In this document: positions 14,954 through 33,500 of the stretch, in pieces
Layout of the letters: each line of letters begins with the position of its first letter
Position numbering within the stretch: position 1 is the stretch's first letter
Assembly (NCBI GenBank): GCA_020051845.1
Contig: JAGVQG010000017.1
Coordinates: forward strand, 1-58,574
Length of the DNA: 58,574 nt
Reading direction: 5' to 3'
DNA from: an archaeon
GTDB lineage: Archaea; Nanobdellota; Nanobdellia; Woesearchaeales; ARS49
Notes under the pieces: model-generated
The model's input: the letters and a program-made list of their open reading frames with translations, nothing else
Databases searched by the model: none
What the model was told of the DNA's origin: nothing
Made by a program: the position numbers and the translations under genes

Positions 14954-15868
14954 ATGCAAAGAAGCGTCATACGGCTAGCAGGCAAGACATTCGTCGTGAG
15001 CCTACCAAGCAAATGGTGCAAGGCAAACGGCGTGACCAAGGGAGCCTTGCTGGAAGTCACACCCCATGGAAGGACACTACTAGTGGGAAGCCAAGGACCC
15101 AGCCATGACAAGCTGAAGCTGGCCTACGACGGCCACGCTGACGGCATCAAACCCCTCCTCACATCAGCGTACAAACGAGGATATGACGAGATCGAACTCG
15201 GCATCGGACCGGGAATGATGCGGCAGATCCAACGCACCATCGATGAAGAACTGGTGGGATTCGAGATAATCAACCAGGGCAAAAGCCACTGCACGATCAG
15301 GACCGTGACGGACGAACGCGAGGAAGAATACGACCAGATAATGCAACGCTGCGTCCACATACTGGGCGACATGCTCGAAAGCGGGCTTTCTGCGCTCAAA
15401 TCCAAGAAATGGGCTGAACTCGAGGAATCGGCGCTCTCCGAGCGGACGCTCGACAAGCTCACAAACTTCGCAAAACGCGTGCTCAACAAGAAATTCAGCG
15501 GCGACGCAGATTTCGCTTTCAACTACGGAATCCTGCGCGGAATAGAACAGACATCGGACGTGCTCGAAAACACATATGTCACGTGGGCAAAAGCAGGCCA
15601 CGCGACACACGACGAGATCGTCTTGTTCGAGGATGTATGCAAGTACGCGAAGACACAACTCGCGCTGATCCAATCACGCTCGCTGACGCACCCTTCATCC
15701 GGCAAGAAAATACTACTGATGCAGGCAGCGGTGCTGATCGAGAAAGGCGGACACGGAGCTATCATCGGCCATCATCTAAGCGAAGCGATAAACGCGCTCG
15801 ACAACATGGCCGGCCAAGTCATAGGTCTCAGCCTAGGGCAGACCGCAACGAGCAAAGATAATCCTTAG
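14954..15868 (+). CDS. AbrB/SpoVT-domain plus PhoU-like helical-domain regulator
   Basis: N-terminus IRLAGKTFVVSLPSKWCKANGVTKGALLEV is a swapped-hairpin AbrB-type motif. The rest is helical with a PhoU-like pattern. The upstream region is AT-rich and multi-TATA. Confidence 0.6.
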   Translation: MQRSVIRLAGKTFVVSLPSKWCKANGVTKGALLEVTPHGRTLLVGSQGPSHDKLKLAYDGHADGIKPLLTSAYKRGYDEIELGIGPGMMRQIQRTIDEELVGFEIINQGKSHCTIRTVTDEREEEYDQIMQRCVHILGDMLESGLSALKSKKWAELEESALSERTLDKLTNFAKRVLNKKFSGDADFAFNYGILRGIEQTSDVLENTYVTWAKAGHATHDEIVLFEDVCKYAKTQLALIQSRSLTHPSSGKKILLMQAAVLIEKGGHGAIIGHHLSEAINALDNMAGQVIGLSLGQTATSKDNP

Positions 15869-18773
15869 CCAACCCCTTCTCATTAGGCAATCTATCGACG
15901 ACAGACAACACGTTGTCGATGAAACCACGGACGACAGGCCCCCTGCTCGGCTGATCGGCCGCATAGGCCGCGAATGAAGCCGCGCGAAACGGAGCGACGC
16001 CGATCATATCCTGCACGAGAGAGCGCGACTCTCCAGATGCCAATGGCTTGCCCGACTCCTTGCGACCGGCGACATAGGCGCCGACGCAACGATCAAGCAG
16101 GATCTCAAGAAGAGGCAATGCACAGGCCTCGCGCTGGAAAATCAGCTTGCACAACTCGTTCGGCGGATGGGTGCTGCCATGCGGCTGGAAGTCGATAGCG
16201 ACGACGCCATCCTTAGTCCTTATCCAGTTCTCAGGATGCGGATCCTTCTTGAAAACAGCGGCGTACTGAATGTCCGCTCCCTTCGCCATGCGAGACAATA
16301 CCTCAAGCCCGGACAGCGATGAAAGCGCGGCAAGCCTTGACGCCCGTTGCGGAGAGAGCGAATAGTCATCGTTGTCCTTGCGTCGGGGCTCGAGAAGACC
16401 GTGTATCATCCCAAGAGCGCGGGCTGCTTCGACGTATGAATCGACCTCGACACATCCTGACAAAGGGCTGCCTGACTCGAAAAGCAACGGAAGGACGTGA
16501 GCGCCGGCATGTTCTCGGACCGACGACAGAACAACAGAGGTCTTCACACCGGCAGCGGACAGCCTATCGTGGGCATGACGCGTCAGATGTTCCTCGGCGT
16601 CAAGACCCTGTTTGTCTCCACGCTTGAGAAGCACGGTCGACTTCAAGAATTCACTGCCTCCAAGACGATGGACATCATAATCACCTATCCGCTCCCAGAC
16701 CGGATTTCTTTCAAGCGCGAGCTTGATCGCGTCGCGCAGGGTATCGCCGGCCATCGAATCATAGCCTGCCGCGGAAAGCAACAGACCCTGCATTATGCCG
16801 AGCTCAGGACGCTCCTTTGGGATCGGGCCGGAAAGGATCTTCCTGGACAACAGCGGAACCCGTGAATAGAATCCACATTGCAGCGCGCTGAACTGGGCTT
16901 CGATCATCTCGCCCAAATCCGCACGCCTCAAAGCCTTGCGGGAATCAAAATATGAGTGTTGAAGCAGAAGCATACGCTGTGGAAGACGCAACGCATCGAA
17001 AGGATCAAAGAGGGCATGATTGTCATCAGGATGCCGCATCGCCTCCTTCAACGACAAAGCAGCGACATCATAATCCTTGTCAAAAATCCTCAATCTGGCC
17101 TCGCACAGGGCGGCAGAACGCGTCGATGGATGCATGATATCGCGGAGAGTCTCGAGCTCGCCCTTCTTCAGACCGACACACATCAAGCCCTTCGCCGAAA
17201 GACCCAACAAACCAAGATATCGCCTGAATCTCGGCGACCGGACAGACCGCGCGTTCGTCAAAATATGGTCTGCAGCGGCGACGTAGGTCATAGATATCAT
17301 GGCAAGGCCGACTGAAAAGGAATACAAAGCAGGACCGTGCAAAGACTTCAACATCGCGCGATAATAGCCGCCATGCATCGAGTCGATCAAATACGAAGCG
17401 GCAACACAGGAGGCGGTCGCGACTGCAAGAGGGTGCTCGACAGCGACGTCGAAAACACCCTTCTCTCCAGAATCCTTCAAATCACGCAAGTGCCTATCGC
17501 GACGCCTGTAGAGCGAGAACAACAACCAAGGCAGGAATGGGACCAACGAAAGACCACCGGCCAAGGCGACCTGAAGGTTGGACATGACTGTTTTCCTGTC
17601 GAATCCAGACCCGCCATCAGGGACATAACAATCGAAACCGCCATCCCTGATCCTCACACAGTCAAGACGAGCGAGCATGGATGCGAACTTATCACTATAG
17701 ATGTACAACCCATCAGAACCCCAACCGCAAAGCAGATCCAAACCGCCGGGATTCTCGAAAGCAGGACGCGTGGAGCGGGCGGCACAATCGAATAACGAGA
17801 CATCGACGCTTTTCATGAGATCGATGGCTTCGTTCGTGGACACCCTCTTCCCGGAAACATCAGGGATTGCCTGGAACGCAAGGATATCGTCGACAGGAGA
17901 CCAGGCCATCGAAACACGAACATCTCCTGAACCCAAGACCATCTCATCCAAAGAACGCAGATCGGTGAGGCGCAACATCCTCTCCTTCTGGTTTGCGCTG
18001 GAGACTGTCGCAAGATATCTACCTGACGGTGAAAGCTCCGAGCGCTCGACCGTGCCAAATGCATTTTCCGTGGTCCGAGCGCGTTTCGACTCCCTGTCGA
18101 CAACAGCTATCCTGCCGAGACCATGCAACACGATCGAATCAAGGGTCAAAGATGGATCGCGCCATTGGTCTCCTTCGACCTCGACAGCATCCATCGCCTG
18201 TTTTTCATCGGCGTCATAAACACGCACAGAGGTCTTGCCTTCTTTTTCGACACAAAAAGGCAATTCTTTGCCTGACCATCGACCGACAGAGACAGCGGCT
18301 GCAGAAAAGACAGACTCCCTGGTCTTGGCGTTGACCATATTCAATCGACCGCTCTTGCCATCGTGAACAGCGACAAAAGCGGCATCACGAGAGATGAACG
18401 CAGAAGGCGACTCTGCGCAGGCAATCTCGACAGAATCATTTGGTTTCCTACCCACATCGACCAGGCAGACAACACCGCCATTCTTGACAACCAAATAATC
18501 CGAGGACACATCCAGGATTTTGTCAGCTGCGCACCTCCTTGTGCCATGGCGCCTGCCGGCATCGATCTCTTCGACACTGCCACCTGCAACACGGAAATAC
18601 GCCCCTTTGACAACATCATGCCTGCTGCCTGTGAACTCGTAGGGATACGGCCATGAACAATCCTTTTGTGAAGGTTGCTTAAGGTTGCAGATCAGATAAA
18701 CACCTGCGCAAAGAGCGCCTGCGCCGACGGCGAAAGAAACAGTCTCCATCAAAGAACGCAATCCCCTACCCAT
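15828..18773 (-). CDS. 981-aa membrane protein: N-terminal anchor, beta-propeller-like ectodomain, TM cluster, helical region, C-terminal protein-kinase-like (APH/PKL) domain
   Basis: TolB/WD-like strands (SPSGRYLATVSS, MAWSPVDDILAF). TM candidates LQVALAGGLSLVPFLPWLLFSLY and ALYSFSVGLAMISMTYVAAA. C-terminal FKKDPHPENWIRTKDGVVAIDF resembles the H.D.HP.N ... IDF catalytic/Mg loops of APH-like kinases. Confidence 0.6.
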   Translation of the reverse strand: MGRGLRSLMETVSFAVGAGALCAGVYLICNLKQPSQKDCSWPYPYEFTGSRHDVVKGAYFRVAGGSVEEIDAGRRHGTRRCAADKILDVSSDYLVVKNGGVVCLVDVGRKPNDSVEIACAESPSAFISRDAAFVAVHDGKSGRLNMVNAKTRESVFSAAAVSVGRWSGKELPFCVEKEGKTSVRVYDADEKQAMDAVEVEGDQWRDPSLTLDSIVLHGLGRIAVVDRESKRARTTENAFGTVERSELSPSGRYLATVSSANQKERMLRLTDLRSLDEMVLGSGDVRVSMAWSPVDDILAFQAIPDVSGKRVSTNEAIDLMKSVDVSLFDCAARSTRPAFENPGGLDLLCGWGSDGLYIYSDKFASMLARLDCVRIRDGGFDCYVPDGGSGFDRKTVMSNLQVALAGGLSLVPFLPWLLFSLYRRRDRHLRDLKDSGEKGVFDVAVEHPLAVATASCVAASYLIDSMHGGYYRAMLKSLHGPALYSFSVGLAMISMTYVAAADHILTNARSVRSPRFRRYLGLLGLSAKGLMCVGLKKGELETLRDIMHPSTRSAALCEARLRIFDKDYDVAALSLKEAMRHPDDNHALFDPFDALRLPQRMLLLQHSYFDSRKALRRADLGEMIEAQFSALQCGFYSRVPLLSRKILSGPIPKERPELGIMQGLLLSAAGYDSMAGDTLRDAIKLALERNPVWERIGDYDVHRLGGSEFLKSTVLLKRGDKQGLDAEEHLTRHAHDRLSAAGVKTSVVLSSVREHAGAHVLPLLFESGSPLSGCVEVDSYVEAARALGMIHGLLEPRRKDNDDYSLSPQRASRLAALSSLSGLEVLSRMAKGADIQYAAVFKKDPHPENWIRTKDGVVAIDFQPHGSTHPPNELCKLIFQREACALPLLEILLDRCVGAYVAGRKESGKPLASGESRSLVQDMIGVAPFRAASFAAYAADQPSRGPVVRGFIDNVLSVVDRLPNEKGLAKDYLCSLRSALG

Positions 18774-18838: not shown

Positions 18839-19363
18839 TTATTGGCAAAGCTTCAGAACAAGAGTCAGTGTCTGACCGCCTATCGGACGAGGACGCGTTA
18901 TCTTCTGGAAACCTGCCGTGCACCCCCCAGGAGGGTTCTTGAACTCGATCTTCTGGTCGTTGATCTTCTCCTCTATCTCAAATACATACTTTCGGCCCCA
19001 GGTGTTGAGCGTGCTGTTGAGCATGTAGCCTATGGTCGCGTTCGCGTAAGCGCAACTGTCGCCGGCAGGGATGACAATGGTCGCGACACCTGCTTTCGTG
19101 ACCTCGATCTCGTCGCACTGGAAGGAAGCGCCTGTCGCACAGTCCTTGAGCATAACCGAAAGCGGCACGCCCTTGCAGACCATCGTAGTCTCAAGCATCG
19201 TGTCGAGAAGGTTCGCTCCGAGCTGCACGTCACGCGCGTTCTGCACAGGATTCTCCTGCACGTTGAAGAAAAAGAAACGCAATGCGAGAAGGATGCCCAT
19301 CAGCACGATGACCATTATTATCGCAAGCCCGAGAAGCTCCATCTGTGCGCGCCTATTTCGCAT
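18839..19363 (-). CDS. prepilin-like protein, 174 aa
   Basis: MRNRRA/QMELLGLAIIMVIVLMGILLAL. 11-nt overlap with the upstream gene. Confidence 0.68.
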   Translation of the reverse strand: MRNRRAQMELLGLAIIMVIVLMGILLALRFFFFNVQENPVQNARDVQLGANLLDTMLETTMVCKGVPLSVMLKDCATGASFQCDEIEVTKAGVATIVIPAGDSCAYANATIGYMLNSTLNTWGRKYVFEIEEKINDQKIEFKNPPGGCTAGFQKITRPRPIGGQTLTLVLKLCQ

Positions 19364-19880
19364 ATTGAGTCACCTCAATGTAGCCGAAAGCGTAGGTGCC
19401 TTCTGTAGACTGGCTGCCTGTGGCATTGAAAATAAGTATGGGAACCTGCATCTTGCTCGACTCCTTGTATTTAGGCAATGTATTGTTGTAGAGCGTGACC
19501 TGCCTGACGGCTGTCGGTGGAACGGCATTACGAGCGTAGATCTGCGTGACAGTGACCGTACTCCAACCGAAAACAGGGAAGTAAAGCGCGGAGATCGCGG
19601 AAGACTGAGGATTACTGTCATCAAGGACCGACGCGAACGCGCTCAACTTGCTCGCATCTATGCAAGCCTCCTCCTGGATGCCGGCTATGGCGCAATCCAG
19701 CTCTGGAAGGAATGAAATCTTCTGCGCCAGGCCGAACATGTGAAGCTGGCTCGCGCGCGCCAACTCCCTGTTCACCGACGTCTTCTGGATGCCGAAATAG
19801 AAGTTCACGCCGAAGATAAGCAGGAAGGCGAACACCACCATCACGGCTATCGACTCGAAGAGCTTTATCTGGGCTTTCAT
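19353..19880 (-). CDS. prepilin-like protein, 175 aa
   Basis: MKA/QIKLFESIAVMVVFAFLLIFGV. Confidence 0.68.
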   Translation of the reverse strand: MKAQIKLFESIAVMVVFAFLLIFGVNFYFGIQKTSVNRELARASQLHMFGLAQKISFLPELDCAIAGIQEEACIDASKLSAFASVLDDSNPQSSAISALYFPVFGWSTVTVTQIYARNAVPPTAVRQVTLYNNTLPKYKESSKMQVPILIFNATGSQSTEGTYAFGYIEVTQYAK

Positions 19881-19881: not shown

Positions 19882-20967
19882 TCAGTACACCGTCGGACAA
19901 CTCAGACGCAACAACTTCTCATTGGAGGCGGCAAGGCTGTCCGCCGCTATCTGGAGTATATTGAAGTCAGGGGAGCTTTCGTCGACCACGGTCTTATGGG
20001 CGAACTTGATGATCGTCGGCAAAGGACCGTCATTCGCAGCGTCAAAACCACCCTCCAGATCGTTCGTCTTGGTGATGACCGTGTACTCTGCACCACACGC
20101 GGGGTTTTTTGTGGTGTCTTTCAGTTCGACAGCCCTTTGCTGATACACCCTGCCCACACCCTCAAGACGCTTGAACGCCGTGATTGCATTGCACGAGTAA
20201 TCCTCCATGTCCTGCGCCATTATGGCGCCGAAAAGCATCTCGTCTCCGAAAAACGCAGTCATTATCGTCTGACCACTGTCGTCAACCGCGTTCTCCTTCT
20301 CGATCATGTTCTTGTTCCTCTTGTAGAACGTGAGATCGTTGGTGGAAGCGCTGACAACCACCACGTGGACATCGACGTCCTTGAACTTTGAGTTCATGAC
20401 GGTCTGGATGGCAGGCGCATCATTGCCGAGCGTCACGAAAACCACACGGCTGTATTTCTCGTTGGTCGCGTCCTTGACATCACTGATCTGCTCGAAACGC
20501 ACATCGGCAGGCATCGCCGCCTTTATCCGGTCAAGCACAGGATCGTTGCCGACCAGGTAAATCTTGACGAAATCATTTGTGATGAAGAGGAAGTTGGTGG
20601 CGCGGAAAGGCGCCTTCCAGTCAAGGGTCCAGAGCTTCGCGTCAGCGCCCTCGACGGTGTATGGCGAAAATATGGAACGATCGTTGAACGGGATGCTGAA
20701 GCGGCCGAACTTTATCGAACAAGAACAATCAGCACAATCGAAGTTAAGACCCAGCTTAGGCAAAGGCACTGTCTGGATCGTGTCCTTGGATTGGAGCGCG
20801 GCTGTCGTTATCGCGTCGAAGTCGTTCTGCAGACGTATCGCCGCCTTGTCCGCGGAAAGCTGGCGCTGAGTGTTGGCGACCTTGAAGAAAAGAGCGAGTA
20901 TGACAGCACCTGCTATGAGGACGAAGATCCAGTTGAACTGGACATCAAGCTGTGCCTTGCGCTTCAT
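19882..20967 (-). CDS. prepilin-like protein, about 361 aa
   Basis: [28 protein letters not shown]. The ATG at 20965-20967 forms an ATGA overlap with the upstream stop. An alternative ATG lies 6 nt upstream at 20973. Confidence 0.68.
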   Translation of the reverse strand: MKRKAQLDVQFNWIFVLIAGAVILALFFKVANTQRQLSADKAAIRLQNDFDAITTAALQSKDTIQTVPLPKLGLNFDCADCSCSIKFGRFSIPFNDRSIFSPYTVEGADAKLWTLDWKAPFRATNFLFITNDFVKIYLVGNDPVLDRIKAAMPADVRFEQISDVKDATNEKYSRVVFVTLGNDAPAIQTVMNSKFKDVDVHVVVVSASTNDLTFYKRNKNMIEKENAVDDSGQTIMTAFFGDEMLFGAIMAQDMEDYSCNAITAFKRLEGVGRVYQQRAVELKDTTKNPACGAEYTVITKTNDLEGGFDAANDGPLPTIIKFAHKTVVDESSPDFNILQIAADSLAASNEKLLRLSCPTVY

Positions 20968-21509
20968 TGCCATGGCGATACGCGCACCGCATTACCAAGC
21001 CCCTCAAGCCGCAATACCACCGTGCCTTGGTCGACAGGCTCGCAGAACCAGCGCTGGTCGCTCTGCTTTTCCGGATCGCTCGAAGCCTGGATGTCAGGAA
21101 GCAGTATGTTCTTCGGAGCGCTTGGCTCGAAGAAGACATTGTCGCCGCCGGTCTCATACACCTCATAGATCAGAGAAGCGTTCTCGGGCAGGCCTGCCAG
21201 CTCGGACATCTCATTGAATTGCGGCTTGCCCTTGACATCGACTTGCGGGTCCTTGTTGCCTGTGACGATGCAGATCTTCTTGTACCTCATCGGCAGCCCT
21301 GCGAGCTCGACCTTCTTCACAGAACCATAGCTCAGACTGATGCTCTTGACCTCGGACTTGAGCGTGCTCGTGAAATCGATGAACGCGACCTCGTTGCCGC
21401 GTTGACTGATCCCCTGGATCGCCTTGTATCCATAACCGAGGATCAGCACGAAGATTATACCCGCCAGGATCAGCACGAAAACCTGCCCTATGATCTGCGC
21501 TTTCCTCAT
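20964..21509 (-). CDS. prepilin-like protein, 181 aa
   Basis: [32 protein letters not shown] overlap with the stop of the giant gene. Confidence 0.68.
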
Positions 21510-24500
21510 TTCTTCCCTCCCTTGGGCTTCTGGATGATCTTGTTGAGCTTGACCTGAGCCATGGACTTGCCAGTGGCATAGGCCTCGACCTCGTGCTCGA
21601 GCTGGTCCTTATGCTGAGAATAGTATTTCGCCGTGATGCGCAGCTTCTTGAAAAGCTCCTCCGCATCTTTCGACGAGAGCTTACCAAGGCGCAGCAACCG
21701 CAGCTTCCTGAGCAGATCCTTACGGTCCTTCGCCGACAATTGCGACAGCGCGATGTTGCCCAGGTTCGCAAGGACATCCTCCTTTGTCTCGACCTTATTC
21801 TCATCGACCTTTGAACCTGGCTTGTTCATCCCGAACTCCGCCGCCAGCTTGCCGATCGCGCCCTTCTCTCCGAGCGGGCCTTTAACATGCATATGCTGGC
21901 CCTTGCCATCCTCGGCGATGCGCCTCTCGAGCTCCTTCAACTTGGAGAACTCCTCCTTCTCAGGCGCCTTGAGAGAATCAAGTGAGACGTAATCATCCTG
22001 CTTCTTGGAACCTGCTCCCGGTGTTCCGGCCACTGTCCTCTTCTGCTGCTGACCAATCCGCTGGGCGATGCGCGCACGCGCCTCCTGCAAGCGTTGCATG
22101 AGGTTCGTGGACAAACCACCCTCCTTGGCGGTCTTCTTGAACCTCTCAGGATGCCTCTTCTGGTATTCCTTGTAGCCGAAATAGCCACCCACAAGCAATG
22201 CCAACAAGACTATCAACAATATCCACAGCCAGAGCCAGGAAGTCGGATGGCTTGCCGGATCAAGAGGATCGGTGCCTGCCTCGACCTCGACACCATCATT
22301 GTAACCATCAAGGTCGGTGTCGGCGTTGTTGGGGTCGGTGCCTGCCTGCCATTCCTGCATGTTGGTAAGACCGTCACCGTCAGGATCGGCGTCTGCCGCG
22401 GCATCGCCGGAGCATTCGATCTTGTCGCCGCCGCCCACGAAGCCGTTCTTGAAACGCCAGGAATCAGGTATGTCGTCACCGCAGGAATGACGCTGGTCGA
22501 TCGAACAACCATCGGCGTCGACCTCGGCGCCCTTCGCAGTGCCAGGACACTTGTCCGTACCGTCAGGCACACCGTCGGCGTCACGGTCACCCTCGACACC
22601 GCAGGAAGCGTCGCCGGGCTCGCACTTGCGGCACACGTTGGCCCCACAGACAAGACCCTGGGCGCAGTCAGCGTCGATCAGGCAAGCCTGGCCCTCGATG
22701 CACTTGGAAGAGCAGGCGCCGCCGCAATCGACATCGGACTCTGTGCCGTCATGGACCGAGTTGAAACAGGGATTCGATTGGACGCAAATATTGTTGATGC
22801 AGGTGTTCGACTTGCAGTCCGCGCTCACCAGGCAGGCCTTGCCGATATCACACTTGGTCGAACAGGAGCTACCGCAGTCGACATCGGTCTCATTGCCGTT
22901 ACGCGTACCATCGGCGCAACCGACCGGAGCGCAACGCGAGACATTGCCCGTCTTCTTGCAATTCCTGCTCTTGCAGTCCGTGTTCACCTTGCACAGCTTG
23001 TTGTCGTCGCACTCCATACACTCGGCGCCGCAGTCGATGTCCGTCTCTGTGAACAACTCGAGCGCCTTGTTCTTGCAATGCGACGGAAGCTTGGAGAGGT
23101 TGATGGTCACGCCATTGCTGTCGTTGGCAGGACCCACCATGCCACCCTCGTTCTGCGGCTTTACCGTGAAGAAATAGGAAGCGCCCTCGGTGAGGTTGAG
23201 ATTGCGGCCAAGCTGGTCCTTAGTCAGATAGAACTTGCCACTGTTCGGCAGCCTGCCTTCGCAGTTGCTGTTCGAGGAATTCGTGCCGTTCATGCAGTCG
23301 ACAATGACCTTGCCGCCGGTCTTGTCCTTGACAGTGTAGAAGTACGCCGTGACAGCGGTCTCGTCGTCCTTGCCCTGCCATTCGGCCTGCAGCTTGTCAG
23401 GGAAGTAGCTTATCTCCTTGTCCTCGGACAAGGGCCCGTCGTCACTGACCTTGACCATGTAGGGCGCTGTGTTGTCTATGACAAAAAGGACGGTGATCTT
23501 GGCTGTCTGCGCCTCCTGAATGCCGCCGACATCGATGACCGCAGTGCAAGTGACGTCGATGGCATTCGGGCCAAGAGTCCTATTGACAAAGCGCCTCGTG
23601 TGGCCTATGCCGTCGGCAGAAGCCATCGGATCATAGTTGACTCCTGCGACACATGTGGCCTTCTTGTTGGTCTCGACACCGATATCCACTGTGGTGTTGC
23701 TGAACGCAGACTTTGTCCTACTGACCACGGTGAGCGTCTGGTTGAGGTCCATGGAGACAGAAGTCGCGCCGAAGACCGGGCCAAGAAGCGCCTCGTTGAA
23801 GCAGGCGACAGCGTACCACTGGGTCTGATTGACCTTCTTGAGCACAGCAACGCTGACATTCACGTACACGTTCTGAGATACGGTCGGTGATAGATTGAAG
23901 TTCGGGAACTCATTGGTGAATGTGGCGTAGAAGTCCTGTGCTGCCTTGCCACTGACATTGACCTGCGAAGGGCTGTCTATCTCCCTGTATTTGCAGAATA
24001 TGTTCTCATCACCCTGAACCTCCAATTTGGTCACGAGCTGACCGTCGGTGGTCTGGGTTATGGGATTGGGATTCGTTGTGACAAGCACAAGTTGAGGAGC
24101 GGTCAGATCGACCTTGAGAGAGCACTGCTTCTGGACGGAATTGCCGCTATCATCGTCCTTGCACCAGATGAAGATCGTCTTCGTGCCAGCATCCTCCTTG
24201 ATGCCATCATAATCTTTCTTGAGATGCTCGAAACCGTCAGCCGACTTCGTGGTGGTGTAGAGACCGTTGAAAGGCAATGATGCGCCTGTCGGAAGATCGG
24301 AGAAGCGGCAGTTGGAGGGTTCACTCGTCTCGAAGATCACGTCGAACGGCGATATCTTCGAGGAGACGCCGAAGCGCGGCTGCTTCAGGCCGACAAAAGG
24401 ACTGCCTGCTGATGTCGAGAACTTGCTCGAACCATAGCCCTCGTTCCCTGCAAGGTCCATCGCCTTGGCCGAAAGCATCTTGCGACCACCCTGCAAAGTC

Positions 24501-27076
24501 AAAGGCTTGAGCAGCCACACCTTAGCCGGTGGACCGCTCATAGACAACTGCGTGTCCTGCGGAGCGAAAAGGCCGCAGTTGGTGCCGAAAATCACCCACT
24601 CTGTCAATGTGAGCTGCTTGATCGTCACTGGCTCGCTCGCATTGACGCCCATCGTGATGCCAGACTCATTCGTCTTTGTCCCATCCTTCGGGATAAGCGT
24701 CAGCGACGGAGCGACTGTATCGACGTTGATCGTGATGGGCTGGGGATTGTCCAATGTCGCGCCCTTCGCGTTGGCCGCGTCGAAACCCAAGGTGTAGATG
24801 CCGTCAGGCAAAGGCGCGCTCGGTGATATGGAATAGCTCGTCGCCGAAGCAGTGACGGCAGGATCGGGCGACACCACAAGGCTCACGCCACCCGACGGAC
24901 CGCTCATCGCGGCCTTGGTCAACTTCACAGGCGAGACGAACGTGACAATGATCTTGAGTTGAGGAGCGCCGGACCTGCCACTGCCTGCGTTGGTGTACCA
25001 GGGGCCCTTATCCGGATACTGGGTTCCTGGCGAGACATTGATGCCCTTGATCGTCGGACCAAGGCAGCCCTCGCAGATCAGCAACGGGATGGTCCTGACA
25101 ACCTCCACATTGTAGCTCGGATCCTCGGTATAGTAACGAAGTTCATACTGGCCCTCGGTGAGATTGAATAATGTCGTGTCATCCTGGGCAGGATCATCGA
25201 CCACACCATCACCCATGCAAAGCAGGTTGTAGCCGGTCGACTTCCAACCGCTCTTGTCATCACGCACGCGGGCGTCTGTGCAATCCGTCGTGTCGCCCTT
25301 CGGACGCACGCAATACCACGTCAAATAATTATCCTTGAACATCGAACCGTCGCCGCACTCGATCTGCGCGGACTGATCCAAAGGCTTGCCCTGAACCGCG
25401 ACAGGCGACGCAGGAAGCACGCCGGAAATCTTGTCGACAAGGCGCGCCACTATGAAACTCGTCACGCCAGACTTGGTCTTCGACGTCAAAGCCGTCTGCG
25501 GCGGGTAGTAATCCTGCTCGCAGGCCTTCTGCAAAAGCGCCGTGCTCGCGCCAAGGCAATCCGCAAAGGTCGCACCATTCGGCCTGCCGTCCGCGTTCTT
25601 GTGACATGCGCCGTTTATCCAGTCGCACACAGGGATCTTGCAGATGTTGGACGTGCTCATCCTTGAAAGTGAATTGTCGGCGTTGATCGCGATGCCGCCC
25701 GCAGGACCGCCGCAATCAGGCTCCTTCGGGAAGATAGAACAATCAGCCTCGGCACAGCTCTTCGCGCTATCCAGCTCAGGGGTAGGACCTGGCACGAAGA
25801 AGCACATGTTGTCCTGGGTCGAGAGAGCTGACGCGACCTCGGGCGAGCATTTGTTGAACACATCATTGTAGGCGTCCTTGTTGGGCGCATTCTTGCTACC
25901 AGCCATGTTGCAAAGCGCGCAATTGCTCGACGTGGAATCCTTGCAGACGCCTACACCGAGACCCTCAAGACCAGGCACAGGGGACCAGGCACAGGTGCCC
26001 TTCAGACCGCATGGGTTCTTTCCGCACACGCGGCTCGACTTGTAATCATAGCACACCATCGACCCGTCGCACTTGTAGCATTCATCGCCAGAAGCTGATC
26101 CGCGGTCGAGGAAGCAATAGGTCGGAGTATCGACAGGACCCTCACAATTCTGTTCGTTGATGTTCAAGCCGAAGACGTCGCTCGACGCGGGCTTGCATTC
26201 GGAAGGCACGATGCATTTCACCGCCTCTGCGCCGCGCTTGAAACACTGTTTGTCAGGAGGACACTGCAAACCCTTGACCACGATGTTGAACGGATTGCAC
26301 GATATCGCGCCATTAAGCCTGTCGGAGAAAGCCAACTTCACGGCAGAATCATAGTCCTTGTTGAAAGTCACATCCTTGCCATAGGAATCCTTGTAGCCCT
26401 TGTCGACCAAGTAATTCTTGCGCTTGTCGTTGTCGAAATGCGCGGGCGAGAGGCAGAACTCCTGCTCGTCGAAGACATCAAGGCACTCGATGTCACCAAG
26501 CATGCCCTGGCCAGACACATCATTCGACCAGCCCTGGATGTAATGCGCCTTGACCTTGTAGATGTACTTCGTCTTCCAAAGCACGATCCTCTTGCCAGCA
26601 GTATCAAGACCAGAATCCTCAAAGTAAGAGTTAGTGGTATCGCCGATCTCCAAACAGTTGCTTCCTGCGATATCACAACGCGTGACACGCACATAATCAG
26701 GAGAACAGCTCGCGTCACCGGGTGACCACTCGATGCGCATGATGTCCTTGCCCTTGACGCCACGCACGCGCACGTCCTTGACATCGGGCTTTCCTGCCGC
26801 ACAGGCAGGAAGCGTGGGAGATATCGACTGGCAAAGCGTGATGCAGTCATCGCCGATCTTCTCCGGCGTGGCTATGTCAGGATAATTCACGCAGTCGCCG
26901 GTGCCGCACTCGCCAGCAGGCCTGAAAGCGTCGCTGCACGCCGAGCTCGACTGAGCATTGCAGCAGCAGACAGGACCATCAGTGGTCTGCGCAGACGCAG
27001 GAACGACGAGGAGCGCGACAAGCGCGATCACCAGCAGGAAGCCGAGCTCAATTGAGCGGCAAGAGCGACTTGGCAA
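21506..27076 (-). CDS. giant (1856 aa) Cys-rich type-I membrane surface protein / putative adhesin
   Basis: TTG start 7 nt after GGAGGTG, with no in-frame ATG before the signal peptide ([22 protein letters not shown]). FN3/Ig-like segments with D-x-T/V-A-P linkers ([23 protein letters not shown]). Three Cys modules, Asp-rich TSP3-like repeats, [25 protein letters not shown] and a 221-aa Lys/Glu-rich tail. Confidence 0.85.
22241..22600 (-). repeat. Asp-rich thrombospondin-type-3-like (Ca-binding) repeats encoded just outside the TM segment
   Basis: [61 protein letters not shown]. Confidence 0.6.
22601..23077 (-). repeat. three tandem ~45-50 aa Cys-rich modules (protein-level repeat)
   Basis: [31 protein letters not shown] / [32 protein letters not shown] / [33 protein letters not shown]. 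Confidence 0.7.
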
Positions 27077-28442
27077 AGATCTCCACCTCCTGGTCGTCGA
27101 TGTTATGTGGAACGTAAATCTCCTTCTCTTCTGCCATTATGTAAACGGAAACCTTCTGGAGAGCGCTCTTCTCAGACGGGCTGAACTTGTGCTTGTCTCC
27201 ACCAGCGACAAGATCCGTGCCGCCAGCGCGCATCGTCATGAAAACTTCATCCTCATCAGGATCGAAGGAGACAATCTCTCCCAGACTTGAATTTGCGGCA
27301 TAGTTTGTAGGAGGCCACACGCCACCTTTTGGATGAGGAACTGTGCCATCGCAATCATCAACATTGAAAACCAAATGGTCGCCTTCCCTAGTGACGTTCG
27401 CCGCGTAACCACTCTGTAACGCGCAGAGCTGGATTTGAAGCGTGGTAGGGTTCGGAATGTACGACAAAGCAGGAGGCCTGTTGTGACGCATCACACGGAA
27501 CTCGTACGGATTGCCATCTATCTTGCTCGCCGCGTCCGTGAAAACGAGCAAATCATCGCCTGCAATGTTGTCCGACGCGTTGCGGACGATGCTGACATGG
27601 ATGGCATCACCGAAATAGGTCAAAGGATCATATGTTATGTCGGTCGCGTCAGCGTCGATGACCTGCTTGGTGACATTATGCACCTTCTTGAGACGCACAG
27701 GCATCTTCGCGGTGAAAGTAGGCAATGCTGTCTCGCCAGAACCGTCCTTCATCTTGACGACCAAAGACGCGTTGAGAATGAAAGTCGTGTCCTCGTCATT
27801 GAGCATGACCTGGACAACCGAGTGCGGCGGCGTTATGTCGACCTGGACGAACTTGGACCAGTCGAGGCAGCTGTCGACGTTCTTCTGTACAGCGGCGACA
27901 AGCTGGCTCTCCATCGAAGGCTGGGCAGGCTGCAGAGTCGTGCCGTTAAGGACAGGCAACCGGTTGATGCCATAGTAACCCTTGTAGGTACGACCGGAAG
28001 AACAACCCGGAGCGGCAGGGATCGGCTCCATCGATTCTTTGCAGAATGGAAAACTCTTCCAAGGATAGGTCGGCACGTACGATGAATACAAACCCTCACC
28101 CTCTGGAGCGTAGAGCCCGTACCACACATCGAAATCATCGTAATTGAGAGAGTTCACACCAGATATGAGATCGCCGCGCGGAGTAAGGCCGCCCTGATTC
28201 TCGGAATAAAGGACACCACCCTGCATGCCGATCTGCTTGACAGCGTCATTGGCAGCGGCCTTCAGGCAGCCGGTCACATATTCCCTGATAGGTTGAACGA
28301 TCTCCCGAGAGAGCTGAACGCCCTTGACAGCGTCTGTCTGGCGAGTCTCGGATTCCGAATTGACGATATAGTACCCCACTCCTGTCATGATTACCACAAC
28401 CAGCCCTACGATGATCATCAACGAGAGTTGTCCTTGCTTCAT
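27048..28442 (-). CDS. prepilin-like large protein, 464 aa
   Basis: [29 protein letters not shown] overlap with the upstream gene. Its 3' end overlaps the TTG start of the giant gene by 29 nt. Confidence 0.7.
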
Positions 28443-29962
28443 GGCCGCAGCTTCGCCGTGAGATCGCGCCAGGCGCCAATTATCGTTGTCTGGTCTGCGT
28501 TACGGAGCTGCGTGATAATTACATCCGATGACTGACCGGGCGGCGTGCAGGTCAGATCCTTGGTGTTGCTGGTGATGAAACCGCAGATGTTGAAAGTGGC
28601 GCCTGCGTAGTGCACGCCAATGACATCCTTGAAGTCATCCGCGGGTTGCTGCTTCTTCGTGTCATTCAATGGCTGCACTGCGAGATGATACTCTATCACT
28701 CCCCAGAGCTCCTTGCCTGCGTTCTGCGCAGCGTAGAATACATTGATGTTGTTCCTTTTACCGAAGAACGCGAAATCCTCACCACTCGTACCTGGAGCGG
28801 GCTCCCTTGCCTGGATTATGACATCCTTCTGCTTGAGAAGCTGCTGGTTAAGCGCATCCATGGCAGAGCCGCTGGCAGGAGTGACACCCTGCGAGTACAG
28901 GACGATGTTAAGGTCCTTGTTGTAGTAGATGTTCGTGCTGACACCCTGCGAGCATTTGGTGAACGTGTCAGAACCGCCGACCACATTGTCGCAGACGGTC
29001 TTCAAAAGATTCTTGTCGATGACCTTGATGAATGTGTTGTCGTCATTGATATTGTTGTTGAGCGAGGTACCGACAAGAGAGACGCCACCGACGCGCAACA
29101 GGCAGACGTTGTTGTGGCAGGAACCGGTCTTTCCGCCCGATGTCATCTTGCAATCGTTTATGACTGCCGGGCTGTCCTGGCCGAACACGCTGTCTATCGT
29201 GTCGCAGAATATCGAATACGGCTGACCTGCGAAAGACTGTTCTTTTATACGCAGCATAAGCAACGCGATGAATTTGGTCCTTGTCGTCCAAGTGCCGGTC
29301 TCATCGCACAGGTGGTCTCCGATGAACTGCCGCGACTTGATGCACGCGGGCGGAGTGGTGCTGTACTTCTCAGGCATGTCATTGTTCTGGATGTTCTGCA
29401 CGCCTGACGTCGGGAAGACAAGACCTGGCTTCACGACACAACGCTTGACAGTGTCTGTCTCAGGGCAATAGCCAAGATAGTCGTTGTCCCAGGTGGTCTT
29501 CGGAATCAATGCCTTCCAATCACCGTCGATGCAACGATAACCCTTGCCGCCAGCCATCACAGTGGAAGATTTCGGATCATTATACGCCGTGTCAAGGCTC
29601 TGGTTGCTTATGATATCGGTGCCGTTCCAGCAAGTGCCCACATCACAGCAACTGGCCTGCATGCCTTCCGGCGCCGGTGGAATGGTGAAACCCACTGGCG
29701 CTGAACATTCGTGCATGACCGGCTTCGTGGTCTTTTCCCACATCACCCAATTACCATTGGGCGAGCACCAGTAAGCGTTGCCTGACGTGCTCGAAGTGCT
29801 CGCGCCAGAACCAGAAATTGACGTAGGACCAAGAACGTCGCACTTGCTCTTGCCGACCACCAAAGGCCCGCCAGGCTTGGTGGGATCGGTCTCGGCTGCT
29901 ATTACGGCGACCGCAAGAACCGCAATGATTGACAAAACCAGGAGCGCTTTGGAGATTCTCAT
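28439..29962 (-). CDS. secreted Cys-rich protein, about 507 aa
   Basis: The track start is TTG. The ATG at 29960-29962 makes an ATGA overlap with the upstream stop. Sec-type signal MRISKALLVLSIIAVLAVAVIAAETD, with many Cys. Confidence 0.72.
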   Translation of the reverse strand: MRISKALLVLSIIAVLAVAVIAAETDPTKPGGPLVVGKSKCDVLGPTSISGSGASTSSTSGNAYWCSPNGNWVMWEKTTKPVMHECSAPVGFTIPPAPEGMQASCCDVGTCWNGTDIISNQSLDTAYNDPKSSTVMAGGKGYRCIDGDWKALIPKTTWDNDYLGYCPETDTVKRCVVKPGLVFPTSGVQNIQNNDMPEKYSTTPPACIKSRQFIGDHLCDETGTWTTRTKFIALLMLRIKEQSFAGQPYSIFCDTIDSVFGQDSPAVINDCKMTSGGKTGSCHNNVCLLRVGGVSLVGTSLNNNINDDNTFIKVIDKNLLKTVCDNVVGGSDTFTKCSQGVSTNIYYNKDLNIVLYSQGVTPASGSAMDALNQQLLKQKDVIIQAREPAPGTSGEDFAFFGKRNNINVFYAAQNAGKELWGVIEYHLAVQPLNDTKKQQPADDFKDVIGVHYAGATFNICGFITSNTKDLTCTPPGQSSDVIITQLRNADQTTIIGAWRDLTAKLRP

Positions 29963-32913
29963 TTTGTAGGTGCCACCTTCCAAACATAACCCATCGGTTG
30001 TAGCCTACCATCGCCCACAACCTGCTGACCCTCACAGGCAGGATCCGTGCTATCATAGTGATCCTTGCCATCCACAGTCACACAACTGTACAACGCGACA
30101 GCAGCGCCGCCAATCTCAGGCGTGGCACTGGCCAGCAAGTAACCAAGCGTGGTGCGCTTGGGCTTGTCTGCTTGCAGCGAATCAGCCACATTGGTGGTTG
30201 TCATGTAATCATTCACGCTGTCCTTGACGAAAACAGAGTAAAGCGTCTTGCCCGCCAGTGTCGTACCGCCAACCTTGGCAGCCTTCGGAATGTACCACTT
30301 CGCCTCTTCAGTGAAACCCGTCTTGCATGGCGTCGTCGTGGTCCTGTGGTCATAACTGGTACTGAAACACCTGTACAGCGTAGCGACGCCGGTCATCGGC
30401 TTGCCCGTGCCTGCTGCTGTAGCTGTACCCATCTTGTCAGGCTTTGTGGGCGTCTTGCATTTTATGCACTCTATTTTTACCTCGATTGCACTCTTAATGC
30501 TAGTTTTGGTAATGCCTTCTGTCGGAGGCAATGCCTGCGCGCCACAAGAGCATGCAGGAACCTTCTTCAACATGTCGATGACACTGCCCGTGCCACCAAT
30601 TTTCCAAAGTTCACTTGACTGAGTGGTCGTCGCCTTCGCAGACAGATATTCATTGCCAGTCATCCAGTTATAGCACTTCACATAATCGAATATCGCCTTT
30701 GCGGCCTTGTCCTTTGGAGCGACTCCATTGAACACCTTCTTGTCGACGATACGGAAGCATTTCTTGTTAGCAGTGGGCTTTAGCTTACCCTCCTTATCAT
30801 AGCAGGACTTGAGCTTTGGATCATCCGTGGCAGGAAGCAATACCGTTTCGAGGTCCTTGGCGTTATCACCAAGATCATCGGGCCTGATAGCAGCATAGCA
30901 TCCTGTCTTCTGCACCTTCAATACCGCTTTAAAGTAGGCTGTAACAGAACCATCATCATTATTCTTGACGCACGTGTCGACTGAACAATTCGGGGTGAGT
31001 GGGTTAATGTCGGCGCATTTCTTGCCATTCTTCAATTCAGTATTGATGAGCTCATAACGAGTATTAGGATCAGTAGCTGGCGCAGTACCACACTTATACT
31101 TGGGCAGCACACGCGCGCAATGCGCCTCGACTTTCTCTGACTCGACGCAGGACCTGCCTGTGGGACAGGCTGTCGCGATTGGATTGCACTTCCCATCATA
31201 TTCTACAAATCCTGTCTTATCGGCGTTGCACGTCGCCTTGCCCGGTATGCACCAGGTCCTGCTCAGAACAGTATTACCTGCCATGTTGCAGCCGTAGAAA
31301 GTGCCGTTGTAGTTCATGATCGAACGGTTTGTGAGCGTGCCACCGGCGTTAATGAAGAGCTTGTCATAGGGAATGCGCTCGCCGACGAAGCGCCAGATGG
31401 CAGCCGCTGTCGATGACGCCGGGTTCTGGGTGCCGACACCCTGTATGGGCGTGCTGTTCCAGCAACCTGCAGGAGGCACCAAAGCCTTCCATTCAATCTT
31501 TTGACTGTCTGGATTTAGGAAGGTCAACGCAGGCTCGTTGTAATACTGGCCTGGCCTGAAACCGCAACAATGCGTTCCTGTCCATTGTATCTTCGGGTCG
31601 GAATTAGACGCGGCTTCGCACGTCTCCTGATCATCGATATCAGACATCCACGCGCCGCTCTCTGTGCAGAAGTATTCGGTCTCGCCGTCTTCTGAAGAGT
31701 TGACTGTCTCGCCTGTTTTGTATGTCTTCTTGAAACCAGCATCACCGCCGATGGTGGCAATAGTCGTCCAAGCCTTCTTGGGATCCCCACCATAGCATTC
31801 CACGGCCGCAACAGCGGGCGGGTTCGCCAGTGGGTTGGCCATCGCGCAAGCGAAACCATGCATCACGGGCTTGGCACCGGTCGCCTGGTAAGCGGAGAAA
31901 TCCTCAGATTTGGCGTTTGCCGCCATCTCTATCTCAAGCTTCTGAGGATCGCCTGTCGCGCCCTCGAAGTCAACCAGTGAAGGACCGCAATAGCGGGGAC
32001 CGGCATCGGTGTAGACCGCAGTGCCTTCCCATTTCTTCTCGCCGTCGATGAATTTCACATTTGCCACGTTGCCCATCTCTTTCTTTGTCAGCCATTGCCA
32101 CTTGCCACTCGCATCCACAATGCACATCGCCTCGAAGTCCTTCGTGCGGTCATCCGGATGATCAGAATCAACTGCAGTGACGACATTCATGAAGTCGCCG
32201 CCTGCCTGAGGATCGTTGCCGCAGCACCTGAATTCGAGATCTTCATCAGTGGTGTTTATCCAAGCGCCATTATTGTTCGTGCAGACGTTCGGGACACTGT
32301 CGGAATCATTCATGAAATCATACTCGTATGAGACGTGGAAACAAGACTGTGTAGAAATGGTCGTCTTGTCGTTGAAGAATGATATCGTGTTAGGACCGGA
32401 TTGGGTTATCAACGGCTTTTTGGTCACTGGATCGACAAGAGGGAAGTTGACAGCTGCTGGCTCTTTAGACGCGCCTGTCACAGAACCCAATGGAATAGTA
32501 CCCCACAATAAAGTGAGTTTGCCAGAACCAGATACGACCAAGTCTATCTTGGCATCGACATTCTGGGGCTCGCCCTTTTTCTTCTCATCTGTCGGGACCT
32601 CATAAGCAGGGAGAGGAATGCTGAAATCACCACCGGATATGCAACCACAGGCCAACTTCTTCTTGCATGCAGTCAATGACCTGCCTTGATCGGCAAGCTG
32701 GCTCGCGTAAGATTCAGGATTCTTCCATTCGACAGGACCCCAATAGCCGCAAACGAAATGCGTGCCTTTACCATCAGCCAAATCAGACCCTGTGCAACCG
32801 GCTTTCAGGTTCTCAATCCCACTACCAACCTTTTGCGCATCCTTAGCAATAACACCAAAAGACAGCACTATCAGGGCAAGAACACAGAACAGCACGCGGA
32901 AGCCAATCTTCAT
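29959..32913 (-). CDS. secreted Cys-rich protein, 984 aa, first gene of the operon
   Basis: Signal peptide MKIGFRVLFCVLALIVLSFGVIAKDA. Very Cys-rich with no C-terminal TM. The C-terminus carries three LY...DH...GY repeats. Confidence 0.8.
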   Translation of the reverse strand: MKIGFRVLFCVLALIVLSFGVIAKDAQKVGSGIENLKAGCTGSDLADGKGTHFVCGYWGPVEWKNPESYASQLADQGRSLTACKKKLACGCISGGDFSIPLPAYEVPTDEKKKGEPQNVDAKIDLVVSGSGKLTLLWGTIPLGSVTGASKEPAAVNFPLVDPVTKKPLITQSGPNTISFFNDKTTISTQSCFHVSYEYDFMNDSDSVPNVCTNNNGAWINTTDEDLEFRCCGNDPQAGGDFMNVVTAVDSDHPDDRTKDFEAMCIVDASGKWQWLTKKEMGNVANVKFIDGEKKWEGTAVYTDAGPRYCGPSLVDFEGATGDPQKLEIEMAANAKSEDFSAYQATGAKPVMHGFACAMANPLANPPAVAAVECYGGDPKKAWTTIATIGGDAGFKKTYKTGETVNSSEDGETEYFCTESGAWMSDIDDQETCEAASNSDPKIQWTGTHCCGFRPGQYYNEPALTFLNPDSQKIEWKALVPPAGCWNSTPIQGVGTQNPASSTAAAIWRFVGERIPYDKLFINAGGTLTNRSIMNYNGTFYGCNMAGNTVLSRTWCIPGKATCNADKTGFVEYDGKCNPIATACPTGRSCVESEKVEAHCARVLPKYKCGTAPATDPNTRYELINTELKNGKKCADINPLTPNCSVDTCVKNNDDGSVTAYFKAVLKVQKTGCYAAIRPDDLGDNAKDLETVLLPATDDPKLKSCYDKEGKLKPTANKKCFRIVDKKVFNGVAPKDKAAKAIFDYVKCYNWMTGNEYLSAKATTTQSSELWKIGGTGSVIDMLKKVPACSCGAQALPPTEGITKTSIKSAIEVKIECIKCKTPTKPDKMGTATAAGTGKPMTGVATLYRCFSTSYDHRTTTTPCKTGFTEEAKWYIPKAAKVGGTTLAGKTLYSVFVKDSVNDYMTTTNVADSLQADKPKRTTLGYLLASATPEIGGAAVALYSCVTVDGKDHYDSTDPACEGQQVVGDGRLQPMGYVWKVAPTK
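29962..30393 (-). repeat. three C-terminal LY(R)-x-DH-x-T ... GY(V/L) repeats (DUF5648-type as far as I recall)
   Basis: LYRCFSTSYDHRTTTT...WYI / LYSVFVKDSVNDYMTTT...LGYLL / LYSCVTVDGKDHYDSTD...MGYVW. Confidence 0.5.
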
Positions 32914-32934: not shown

Positions 32935-32944
32935 GTATATTAAG
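32935..32944 (-). promoter_or_regulatory. TATA box (CTTAATATAC on minus strand) for the giant-adhesin operon
   Basis: About 27 nt upstream of the 32913 ATG. Confidence 0.5.
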
Positions 32945-32993: not shown

Positions 32994-33500
32994 ATGTCGC
33001 ATTCAAAAAGAGGTGTCAATAGATTAAACGTTCTTCTTTTGACCTTCGGGGTGCTGGCCTTGGTCCTGATAGGAATAATGGTTTTCTATACCTGGAAAGC
33101 GCCTGCCGAGAAAAAAGCCGAGCTAAGACGAGAATGCGCGTCCTCATTCGACGACAAAGTATACCACATGACGACGATGCAGCAATGCAATGACGCCAAC
33201 CTGTGGAAGGAAGCCTTGACGAAATGCAAGGCCTGGGTGAGCGGCAACACCGACTACTGCATCGGCCTCGCGCCGACAGACACTTCCTGGTGCAATGCCA
33301 TGGCCACAAAGGACCCTGCGAAGTGCGAAGGCACAGGAAGCGCGGCGAACTACTGCAAAGCGTTCGTGACAAGGAACCCTGCGCTCTGCGACGGCCTGGT
33401 CGGAACAGACTATGAATACTCGTGCGCGGTCACGATCAAAGGCGACTATAAAGCGGTAGACGCCGACGCCGCTGAATTATGCGGTGAGGACACTGTCTAG
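32994..33500 (+). CDS. prepilin-like/anchored protein with Cys-pair repeats, 168 aa
   Basis: MSHSKRG/VNRLNVLLLTFGVLALVLIGIMVF. Repeated C-x(6-10)-C units (KCKAWVSGNTDYC, WCNAMATKDPAKC, YCKAFVTRNPALC). Confidence 0.65.
   Translation: MSHSKRGVNRLNVLLLTFGVLALVLIGIMVFYTWKAPAEKKAELRRECASSFDDKVYHMTTMQQCNDANLWKEALTKCKAWVSGNTDYCIGLAPTDTSWCNAMATKDPAKCEGTGSAANYCKAFVTRNPALCDGLVGTDYEYSCAVTIKGDYKAVDADAAELCGEDTV

Follow-up and report, generated by a model that had tools for sequence, protein, structure and literature searches.

How small-genome archaea of the DPANN group recognise and hold partner cells is an open question. Cryo-electron tomography of these organisms shows pili, filaments and an "attachment organelle", whose building proteins are unknown (PMC7906910, PMC11420986). 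In the Nanobdellota (YN1, Nanobdella), this organelle has a cone, a portal and a 6.6-nm filament, and its protein composition is likewise unknown (PMC11420986). More is known of the loci that encode archaeal type IV filaments. These often carry large Ig-fold adhesin-like proteins or C-terminally anchored, Cys-containing ones, for which the surveys leave the role open between adhesin, S-layer-like protein and envelope priming (PMC4858521; bioRxiv 10.64898/2026.04.22.720090). Epd-like "System 1" filaments have been reported in DPANN archaea (bioRxiv 10.64898/2026.04.22.720090), and the Epd pilins of Methanococcus are processed at RAQI, KGQV or KGQL sites by the peptidase EppA, which requires a Gln at position +1 (PMC4371748). 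In bacteria, the account of Myxococcus given in PMC7541494 describes PilY1 and the minor pilins as a priming and tip complex. I describe here a conserved eight-gene operon, a concrete candidate for a part in partner recognition, whose central gene encodes a Cys-rich membrane protein of 1856 residues (hereafter the giant). It lies in a 58,574-nucleotide stretch of DNA from the Woesearchaeales (GenBank assembly GCA_020051845.1, contig JAGVQG010000017.1; hereafter the window). Literature searches returned no description of the giant's family or of the operon.

In Woesearchaeota the gene for the giant has a fixed, translationally coupled place at the centre of a conserved operon of pilin-like genes. 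In the window the operon runs on the reverse strand in the order U1-U2-A-GIANT-B-C-D-E, and the seven junctions measure −25 (or an ATGA overlap), −4, −29, −4, −10, +1 and −11 nt. A TATA-like sequence, TTAATATA, is found at 32936–32943, 23–30 nt before the ATG of U1, and motifs resembling a Shine-Dalgarno sequence precede genes B, E and U2 as well as the giant. Hidden Markov models (HMMs) of each family were scanned over 51 distinct loci. The same-strand order A-GIANT-B-C-D-E is complete in 36 of these, with no exception in order or strand; most of the incomplete loci are cut by contig ends, and gene A is apparently absent in three. Orthology holds at every position of the operon. U2 precedes A in most loci, itself preceded by a variable large secreted U1. 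The initial annotation, made from the window's letters alone, had presented the giant as a stand-alone adhesin; it missed this pilin context, in which four flanking genes and a fifth prepilin-like gene keep a fixed order.

The five prepilin-like genes were recognised from their N-terminal motif and their orthologues. Gene A (27048–28442, reverse strand, as are all genes of the operon) encodes 464 residues beginning MKQGQ|LSLMIIVG, where the bar marks the cleavage site. Gene B (20964–21509) encodes 181 residues beginning MRKAQ|, and overlaps the stop of the giant by 4 nt. Gene C (19882–20973) encodes 363 residues, gene D (19353–19880) 175 residues beginning MKAQ|IKLFESIAVMVVF, and gene E (18839–19363), the last of the operon, 174 residues beginning MRNRRAQ|MELLGLAIIM. 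I used a FlaFind-type rule for class III signal peptides, namely [KR][GA][Q…] followed by a hydrophobic stretch of ∼20 residues, extended with the +1 Gln of EppA substrates, and all five proteins conform to it: in each, a short basic leader precedes [KR][AGS]Q and a run of ∼20 hydrophobic residues. The consensus drawn from 38–46 orthologues per family, [KR][KR][AGS]Q and ∼20 hydrophobic residues, is very regular, that of D reading [KR][AGS]QIKMFETIAVLVVFF and that of E [KR][KR][AGS]QMEIxGLxIIV. Since this consensus equals the Methanococcus processing sites with their +1 Gln, the signal peptides of A–E are of the Epd/EppA type.

The two genes at the head of the operon encode secreted, Cys-rich proteins that are not anchored to the membrane. 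U1 (29959–32913), the first, has 984 residues and 42 Cys and varies between genomes. U2 (28439–29983) has ∼507 residues and 19 Cys; its probable start is the ATG at 29962, which overlaps the stop of U1 (ATGA). U2 is conserved and at times fused to larger proteins, and the U1 of other genomes carries PKD or CBM60 domains. U1 may be a host- or substrate-specific part.

The gene for the giant (21506–27076, reverse strand) is the largest open reading frame (ORF) of the window, as had been noted at the outset; the next largest encode 984 and 981 residues. It starts at a TTG (27076–27074), which lies 7 nt after a perfect Shine-Dalgarno sequence, GGAGGTG (27090–27084), and 29 nt inside gene A, whose TGA is at 27050–27048; both distances agree with the initial annotation. 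An in-frame stop at 27139 closes the frame upstream. No in-frame ATG is available, and the only alternative starts before residue 64 are GTG at codons 16 and 63; a start at codon 16 would deprive the signal peptide of its charged, Arg-containing n-region. Most orthologues start with ATG, and they possess signal peptides of similar length, with the GCCC motif within a few residues after. The gene-calling pipelines of NCBI and JGI independently chose the identical TTG, and the non-ATG start proposed previously is therefore sound. The second member of the giant's 90% identity cluster is the same contig in the JGI call, and hence supplies no population variant.

This gene is real. An open frame of 1856 codons cannot have arisen by chance, and colinearity with more than 100 homologues rules out an assembly chimera; with more than 90 that share its architecture, the giant aligns from end to end. 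The unusual TTG start is what speaks for an artefact, be it a chimera, a pseudogene or an ORF that is not expressed, yet TTG is also the only start available in a few orthologues (loci L017, L049 and L054). The perfect Shine-Dalgarno sequence, the conserved synteny, the confident structural models and 40 or more invariant or nearly invariant Cys positions in the head domain (see below) further reduce the probability of an artefact to a negligible level, so that this explanation is effectively refuted. An ORF of 598 codons, antisense to the giant at 22094–23890 (forward strand), is almost certainly a shadow ORF of the G+C-rich coding region and not a gene.

Two hydrophobic segments are found in the giant, at residues 9–29 and 1613–1635. 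The first belongs to a Sec-type signal peptide (residues 1–29, 26990–27076, cleavage …VVPASA|Q), identified by hydropathy and comparison of orthologues, and is not of class III; the polar GCCC that follows the ASA|Q site rejects the giant itself as a type IV pilin. The mature protein had been said to start with CCC. This triplet (residues 37–39) is invariant and, as part of the pattern SP…GCCC, the hallmark of the family in nearly all orthologues, but it occupies residues 8–10 of the predicted mature chain and not its first positions. It belongs to an N-terminal Cys-knot segment (26780–26989), defined from the alignment and from an AlphaFold2 model that is less certain here than elsewhere. Then follow an FN3-like β-sandwich (residues ∼100–192, 26501–26779), with a weak sequence match to the PDB entry 3mpc; a Cys-rich α/β core (residues ∼193–526, 25499–26500), with ∼28 near-invariant Cys and the motifs MxCYDYKS and CExDYFPPxT; and a β-sandwich (residues 527–672, 25061–25498) that closes the head. 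The stalk (residues 673–1322, 23111–25060) consists of six Ig/FN3-like β-sandwich domains, with weak matches to the Pfam families Big_13 and Big_3_3 and with the predicted D-x-T/V-A-P linkers at residues 785 (VDTVAP), 989 (VDLTAP) and 1200 (IDNTAP). Below it are three modules of ∼50 residues and 8 Cys (E-T-D-x-D-C-G-G-x-C…D-C-x-S-x-x-C; residues 1334–1485, 22622–23077), visible in the sequence and in the model. Asp-rich TSP3-type Ca-binding repeats (residues 1486–1612, 22241–22621) come next: these match the Pfam family TSP3_bac with E-values of 4e-13 to 9e-14 and 49–51 bits, against a cutoff of 25, and TSP_3 with an E-value of 2e-4, below the cutoff of that family. A single transmembrane helix (residues 1613–1635, 22172–22240), kept in ∼90 family members, leads into a cytoplasmic tail of 221 residues (1636–1856, 21509–22171), which is basic, Lys/Glu-rich and free of Cys. 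The FN3/Ig-like segments, the three modules, the Ca-binding-type repeats and the single helix with its long tail had all been anticipated correctly.

The distribution of Cys is in keeping with this topology. The giant possesses 87 in total, of which one is in the signal peptide, 86 are in residues 30–1612 (5.43%) and none is in the helix or tail; nine housekeeping proteins of the window contain 1.00% Cys. Of 69 family members, 59 have an even number of ectodomain Cys (p = 1.4e-9), the outcome to expect from complete disulfide pairing. The window protein has 18 N-x-S/T sequons, all between residues 638 and 1395, with 15 of them in the stalk. In the family as a whole, the stalk has more sequons than expected (1.70 per 100 residues, 1019 observed versus 742 expected) and the head fewer (0.62 per 100 residues, 224 observed versus 379 expected), and the tail has almost none. 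Because of the even ectodomain Cys counts, the Cys-free tail and the confinement of the sequons to the ectodomain, a type I topology is well supported, and the giant is best described as a predicted membrane-anchored, disulfide-rich type I glycoprotein. Anchoring by an archaeosortase can be rejected: PGF-CTERM surface proteins have a PGF motif, a transmembrane helix and a very short basic C-terminus, whereas the giant lacks the PGF motif and has a tail of 221 residues.

Searches of Pfam, NCBIfam and PDB sequences with the head core, the Cys modules and the tail gave no match; elsewhere in the giant the sequence libraries returned only TSP3 and weak Big_13 and FN3 matches. Matches to designed β-trefoils in the PDB are repeat artefacts. 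Structural models of the ectodomain were generated with AlphaFold2. The head (residues 30–672, modelled from an alignment of 52 sequences) reached a mean confidence (pLDDT) of 87.9 and a pTM of 0.80, and the rest of the ectodomain (residues 673–1612) 89.2 and 0.71, respectively. In the head model, the less certain N-terminal Cys knot, the FN3-like sandwich, a core of ∼330 residues and the closing β-sandwich follow each other; the core is a mixed α/β structure with pLDDT above 90. The remainder of the ectodomain was modelled as six β-sandwiches, the three small Cys modules and Asp-rich loops.

Foldseek comparison of the head to the PDB and BFVD matched only the FN3 part (probability 1.0, TMt 0.6–0.77), and the core is thus without a detected structural relative in these two collections. 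The stalk matched tandem Ig/FN3 rods with E-values down to 1e-15, including the Aureispira grappling-hook protein GhpA, mastigonemes, contactins, complement proteins, cadherins and the S-layer proteins csg of Haloferax (7ptp) and Sap and EA1 of Bacillus. The TM-scores are low (0.1–0.19), so these matches indicate a resemblance of kind and not homology. The head FN3 domain and the stalk rods together place the giant among proteins of FN3/Ig-like β-sandwich build.

An exhaustive HMM search with the head domain gave 3612 matches, of which 250 have E-values below 1e-30. Among the 150 best representatives at 50% identity, the head domain is present in at least 125, and ∼90 members are full-length, with a signal peptide, the head, a stalk, 1–6 ETDxDCG modules, TSP3 motifs, one C-terminal transmembrane helix and a tail of 57–336 residues. 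A word-index protein search found only six relatives, and none when seeded with the head alignment; since the exhaustive search found hundreds, the word-index counts are undercounts, and rarity judged from that search alone would have been wrong. The giant is neither rare nor unique, and belongs to a widespread, unnamed family. All its named members are annotated as "hypothetical protein". No relatives were found among the viral contigs of IMG/VR, and a pattern scan retrieved no homologue from cultivated Nanobdellales.

The named loci of the family carry metagenome-assembled genome (MAG) labels of Woesearchaeota or Nanoarchaeota. Some, among them the operon-bearing L008–L014, L018–L021, L024, L029, L032 and others, are titled "uncultured Methanosarcinales archaeon", probably a placeholder or a wrong label. 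The window itself contains archaeal housekeeping genes: RadA, RPA, PheRS, RFC, FEN1 and PAN were recognised by eye, and RPA and RNase P p30 were confirmed by Pfam. The named best matches of its PheRS-beta are solely Woesearchaeota and Nanoarchaeota MAGs, at ∼50% identity. This agrees with the labels of the related loci and supports the premise that the DNA comes from a small-genome archaeon of the DPANN, Woesearchaeota type.

Mean pairwise identity in the family is 44% in the Cys modules, 40% in the TSP3 region, 39% in the Cys core and 30% in the stalk, and lowest, at 23%, in the tail. The head has ∼30 invariant Cys positions and 10–15 nearly invariant ones, the numbers varying with the alignment. 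This comparison, region by region, revealed no hypervariable tip, and an adhesin of that kind can be rejected, as the head, farthest from the membrane, ranks with the best conserved parts (39% versus 30% for the stalk). Such a head is more readily reconciled with a partner or ligand that is itself conserved than with a tip that evolves fast to suit particular hosts.

In the tails of the family (20% Lys, 7% Arg, 11% Glu and 0.1% Cys), a short motif stands out, [DE][VIL]-F-x-[KR]-L-[KR]-x-[IL]. It occurs in 82 copies in 55 of 90 tails, compared to 4.4 ± 2.1 in shuffled sequences, often 10–30 residues before the C-terminus. Two F-x-K-L-K copies are present in the window protein, encoded at 21929–21955 (EEFSKLKEL) and 21620–21658, the second inside a longer block common to a sub-family. 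Such a motif is what a docking site for a cytoplasmic partner would be expected to look like, and it lends some support to the outside-in coupling suggested at the outset.

Downstream of the operon is a family of small pilin-like genes. Two of these, encoding 84 and 83 residues (MNSKGQGISINVIIVAAIALLVLVVL…), form a tandem pair at 13748–14250 (reverse strand), found through their N-terminal motif and a family scan, and further candidates are at 10465–11045 (reverse strand), giving four small genes of 83–103 residues in the window. Members of the family (81–103 residues) hardly differ in their class III N-termini (MNKKAQGISINTIIIAAIALxVLVVL) and are Cys-rich at the C-terminus; 22 loci (the window and 21 others) encode them downstream of the operon and on its strand, often as tandem pairs or triplets. 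They are good candidates for major pilins on the basis of these features. At least eight larger prepilin-like ORFs (173–324 residues), with N-termini such as MDKRG|IEHQALLVGVIVVV and MKRG|ALWSIAEFW, lie at 6568–13639 (reverse strand), and two more at 32994–33500 and 40864–42075 (forward strand); recognisable homologues in related loci were seen for some of the larger ORFs only. The region from roughly 6.5 to 33 kb looks like a type IV filament super-locus.

Between the operon and the small pilins are genes for an AsnC/Lrp-type regulator (14326–14802, reverse strand) and a 304-residue protein with a weakly AbrB/MazE-like N-terminus (14954–15868, forward strand). Homologues of the two follow the operon in 17 and 19 loci, respectively, so both are possible regulators of the locus. 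The gene for a membrane protein of 981 residues (15828–18773, reverse strand) has the orientation of the operon and begins 65 nt beyond it. Conservation of this protein is poor; about four loci have a weak homologue, and the kinase-like appearance of its C-terminus, a visual impression, found no support in Pfam. Just upstream of the operon are RNase P p30 (33497–34069, reverse strand) and then PheRS-beta (35617–37272, reverse strand). RNase P p30 is also upstream in loci L001, L003 and L005, and PheRS-beta in L001, which points to deep synteny across lineages whose giants share ∼30% identity. Farther away, four predicted exported proteins, at 43995–46932 (forward strand) and 52841–53512 (reverse strand), have bacterial-style lipoboxes (LAGC, VTAC, VVGC and LAAC), which suggests that the source archaeon makes lipoproteins.

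The conserved pilin-operon setting points to a pilus-linked attachment device that has not been described. From anatomy and synteny I infer, with slightly better than even confidence, that the giant serves a type IV filament apparatus as its non-pilin accessory or adhesin subunit. The disulfide-locked head of ∼640 residues, made of the FN3 domain and the Cys-rich core, would be the binding part and stand some tens of nanometres above the membrane, through the envelope. The stalk of about six β-sandwich domains, probably N-glycosylated, would be stabilised by disulfides and Ca, the TSP3 repeats lying next to the membrane before the anchor in the cell's own membrane. The giant would be made in fixed proportion with the five minor-pilin-like proteins and with one or two secreted Cys-rich proteins, and may cooperate with the minor pilins in the way that PilY1 does with FimU-PilVWX-PilE in bacteria, its F-x-K-L-K motifs docking a cytoplasmic partner. 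Physical cooperation with the filament, adhesion and signalling through the tail would all be parts of this proposal.

Several observations weigh against it. Sharing an operon speaks for co-expression of the giant and the pilin-like proteins and not for contact between them, and A–E are candidate pilins by virtue of their N-terminal motif alone; Pfam matched no pilin family in 145 of their orthologues. Foldseek, against the PDB and BFVD, revealed no recognisable binding fold in the head. The C-terminal membrane anchor does not fit a PilY1-like location at a pilus tip. Finally, neither the window nor the 10 kb on either side of any locus yielded an assembly ATPase, a platform protein or a prepilin peptidase (ATPases were sought by a Walker-A scan), so the machinery of the filament itself was not seen. 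Bacterial minor-pilin operons likewise have no assembly ATPase nearby.

A more ambitious version of the pilus-linked proposal, which I regard as unlikely, is that the operon and the adjacent small pilins together encode a cell-contact organelle of Woesearchaeota, not described before, in which a filament is physically coupled to the membrane-anchored giant. The stalk would then span the envelope as a portal, collar or grappling head, and the tail motifs would tie contact to cytoplasmic machinery. Such an organelle could be a mesophilic counterpart of the attachment organelle of cultivated Nanobdellota, a link that stays speculative because no homologue of the giant was found in the cultivated lineages.

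The giant could also belong to the envelope, as a structural wall protein or an "envelope-priming" protein that builds or remodels the surface layer for filament passage, the pilin-like proteins being periplasmic stators similar to ArlF/ArlG of the archaellum and not filament subunits. A Sec signal peptide, tandem β-sandwiches, a C-terminal transmembrane helix and conserved Cys are indeed the plan of the "S-layer-like" proteins of archaeal type IV pilus loci (PMC4858521), and a survey of type IV filaments suggests for them a possible role in preparing the cell wall to let the filament through (bioRxiv 10.64898/2026.04.22.720090). Even conservation along the whole ectodomain, with no variable tip, would suit a wall protein. 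The Foldseek matches to csg, Sap and EA1 point the same way, but with TM-scores of 0.1–0.19 they reflect a generic resemblance of domain strings. For a very abundant wall protein, a translationally coupled gene in the middle of an operon, with a TTG start, would be atypical, and cytoplasmic tails of 60–340 residues with conserved motifs are not normal for S-layer anchors. Since the gene is placed mid-operon and has a weak start codon, and since the tail is long, I consider this combined envelope-and-stator role improbable. Somewhat more doubtful still is the original suggestion of an adhesin that binds a host or partner on its own, with outside-in signalling; the pilin genes next to it would then be no more than surface functions under shared regulation. 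The architecture is that of a giant adhesin, the stalk resembles the GhpA hook protein and cadherins, the tail carries a conserved motif and the lineage is DPANN; moreover, in the groundwater from which several of the related MAGs were obtained, ultrasmall cells have been seen in contact with hosts, by pili-like structures among others (PMC7906910). However, all 36 complete loci show one invariant order of overlapping genes, and this speaks for a stoichiometric complex over loose co-regulation. The head is conserved and not diversifying; it is U1 and U2 that vary, and they are likelier candidates for binding a particular host. Attachment of the giant to a host would in either case be an extrapolation from its anatomy.

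The pilus-linked proposal turns a vague "giant adhesin" into testable hypotheses. The interest of the giant lies in its setting more than in its length. The operon supplies candidate parts with defined domain boundaries: a modelled head, five minor-pilin-like proteins, candidate major pilins and a tail motif. A family of at least 125 clusters at 50% identity, annotated only as "hypothetical", also deserves a family model.

Among known systems, the fimU-pilVWXY1-pilE operon of Pseudomonas is similar in layout, with a large Sec-exported, Ca-binding non-pilin among about five pilin-like genes, apart from the assembly ATPase genes; like the PilY1/PilC adhesins, the giant is encoded within a minor-pilin operon. 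It is not a PilY1 homologue, as the β-propeller and vWA domain of PilY1/PilC are absent in both Pfam searches and the AlphaFold2 models. It further differs from PilY1 in its C-terminal transmembrane helix and cytoplasmic tail, found in ∼90 members, where PilY1 is soluble or exported at the pilus tip, in having TSP3 repeats as its Ca sites, in its archaeal lineage and in the lack of detectable homology. The Epd pilus (System 1) of Methanococcus maripaludis shares the [KR][AG]|Q motif with its +1 Gln, and the combination of several minor pilins and a small major pilin. This likeness is one of signal-peptide motif; Glu is not at position +5 in all five families, and neither EppA nor an ATPase was seen in the window.

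The SPEARE proteins of Nanohaloarchaeota exceed 5000 residues and carry protease, adhesion and restriction-endonuclease domains. The giant, with only 1856 residues and no such Pfam domains, is not of this type. Nearer to its membrane-proximal part is the signature region of thrombospondin/COMP, with EGF-like domains followed by type 3 repeats, which I take to resemble the giant's three small Cys-knot modules placed directly before TSP3 repeats. The modules of the giant are 8-Cys units that Pfam does not recognise as EGF, and the bacterial-type TSP3_bac fits best. With the attachment organelle of Nanobdellota the source archaeon broadly shares a phylum, and an envelope-embedded filament device for host contact is the kind of structure the operon could build; this link is purely conjectural.

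Further counterparts are the adhesin-like and S-layer-like proteins of archaeal filament loci, such as arCOG05471 and arCOG05616, which likewise have a signal peptide, many Ig-like folds, conserved Cys and pilin neighbours, some of them also a single C-terminal transmembrane helix, and whose fold is GhpA-like. The giant combines all the features by which the S-layer-like proteins of type IV pilus loci are described, namely a signal peptide, a single C-terminal transmembrane helix, Cys residues and a pilin locus (PMC4858521). Compared by description to these proteins of Thermoproteota and Euryarchaeota loci, it adds the 330-residue core, the 8-Cys modules, the TSP3 repeats and the motif-bearing tail, and its operon, unlike the archaeal filament loci described, is without ATPase and platform genes. 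The giant family is a new, DPANN-specific variant on the large Ig-fold proteins of filament loci.

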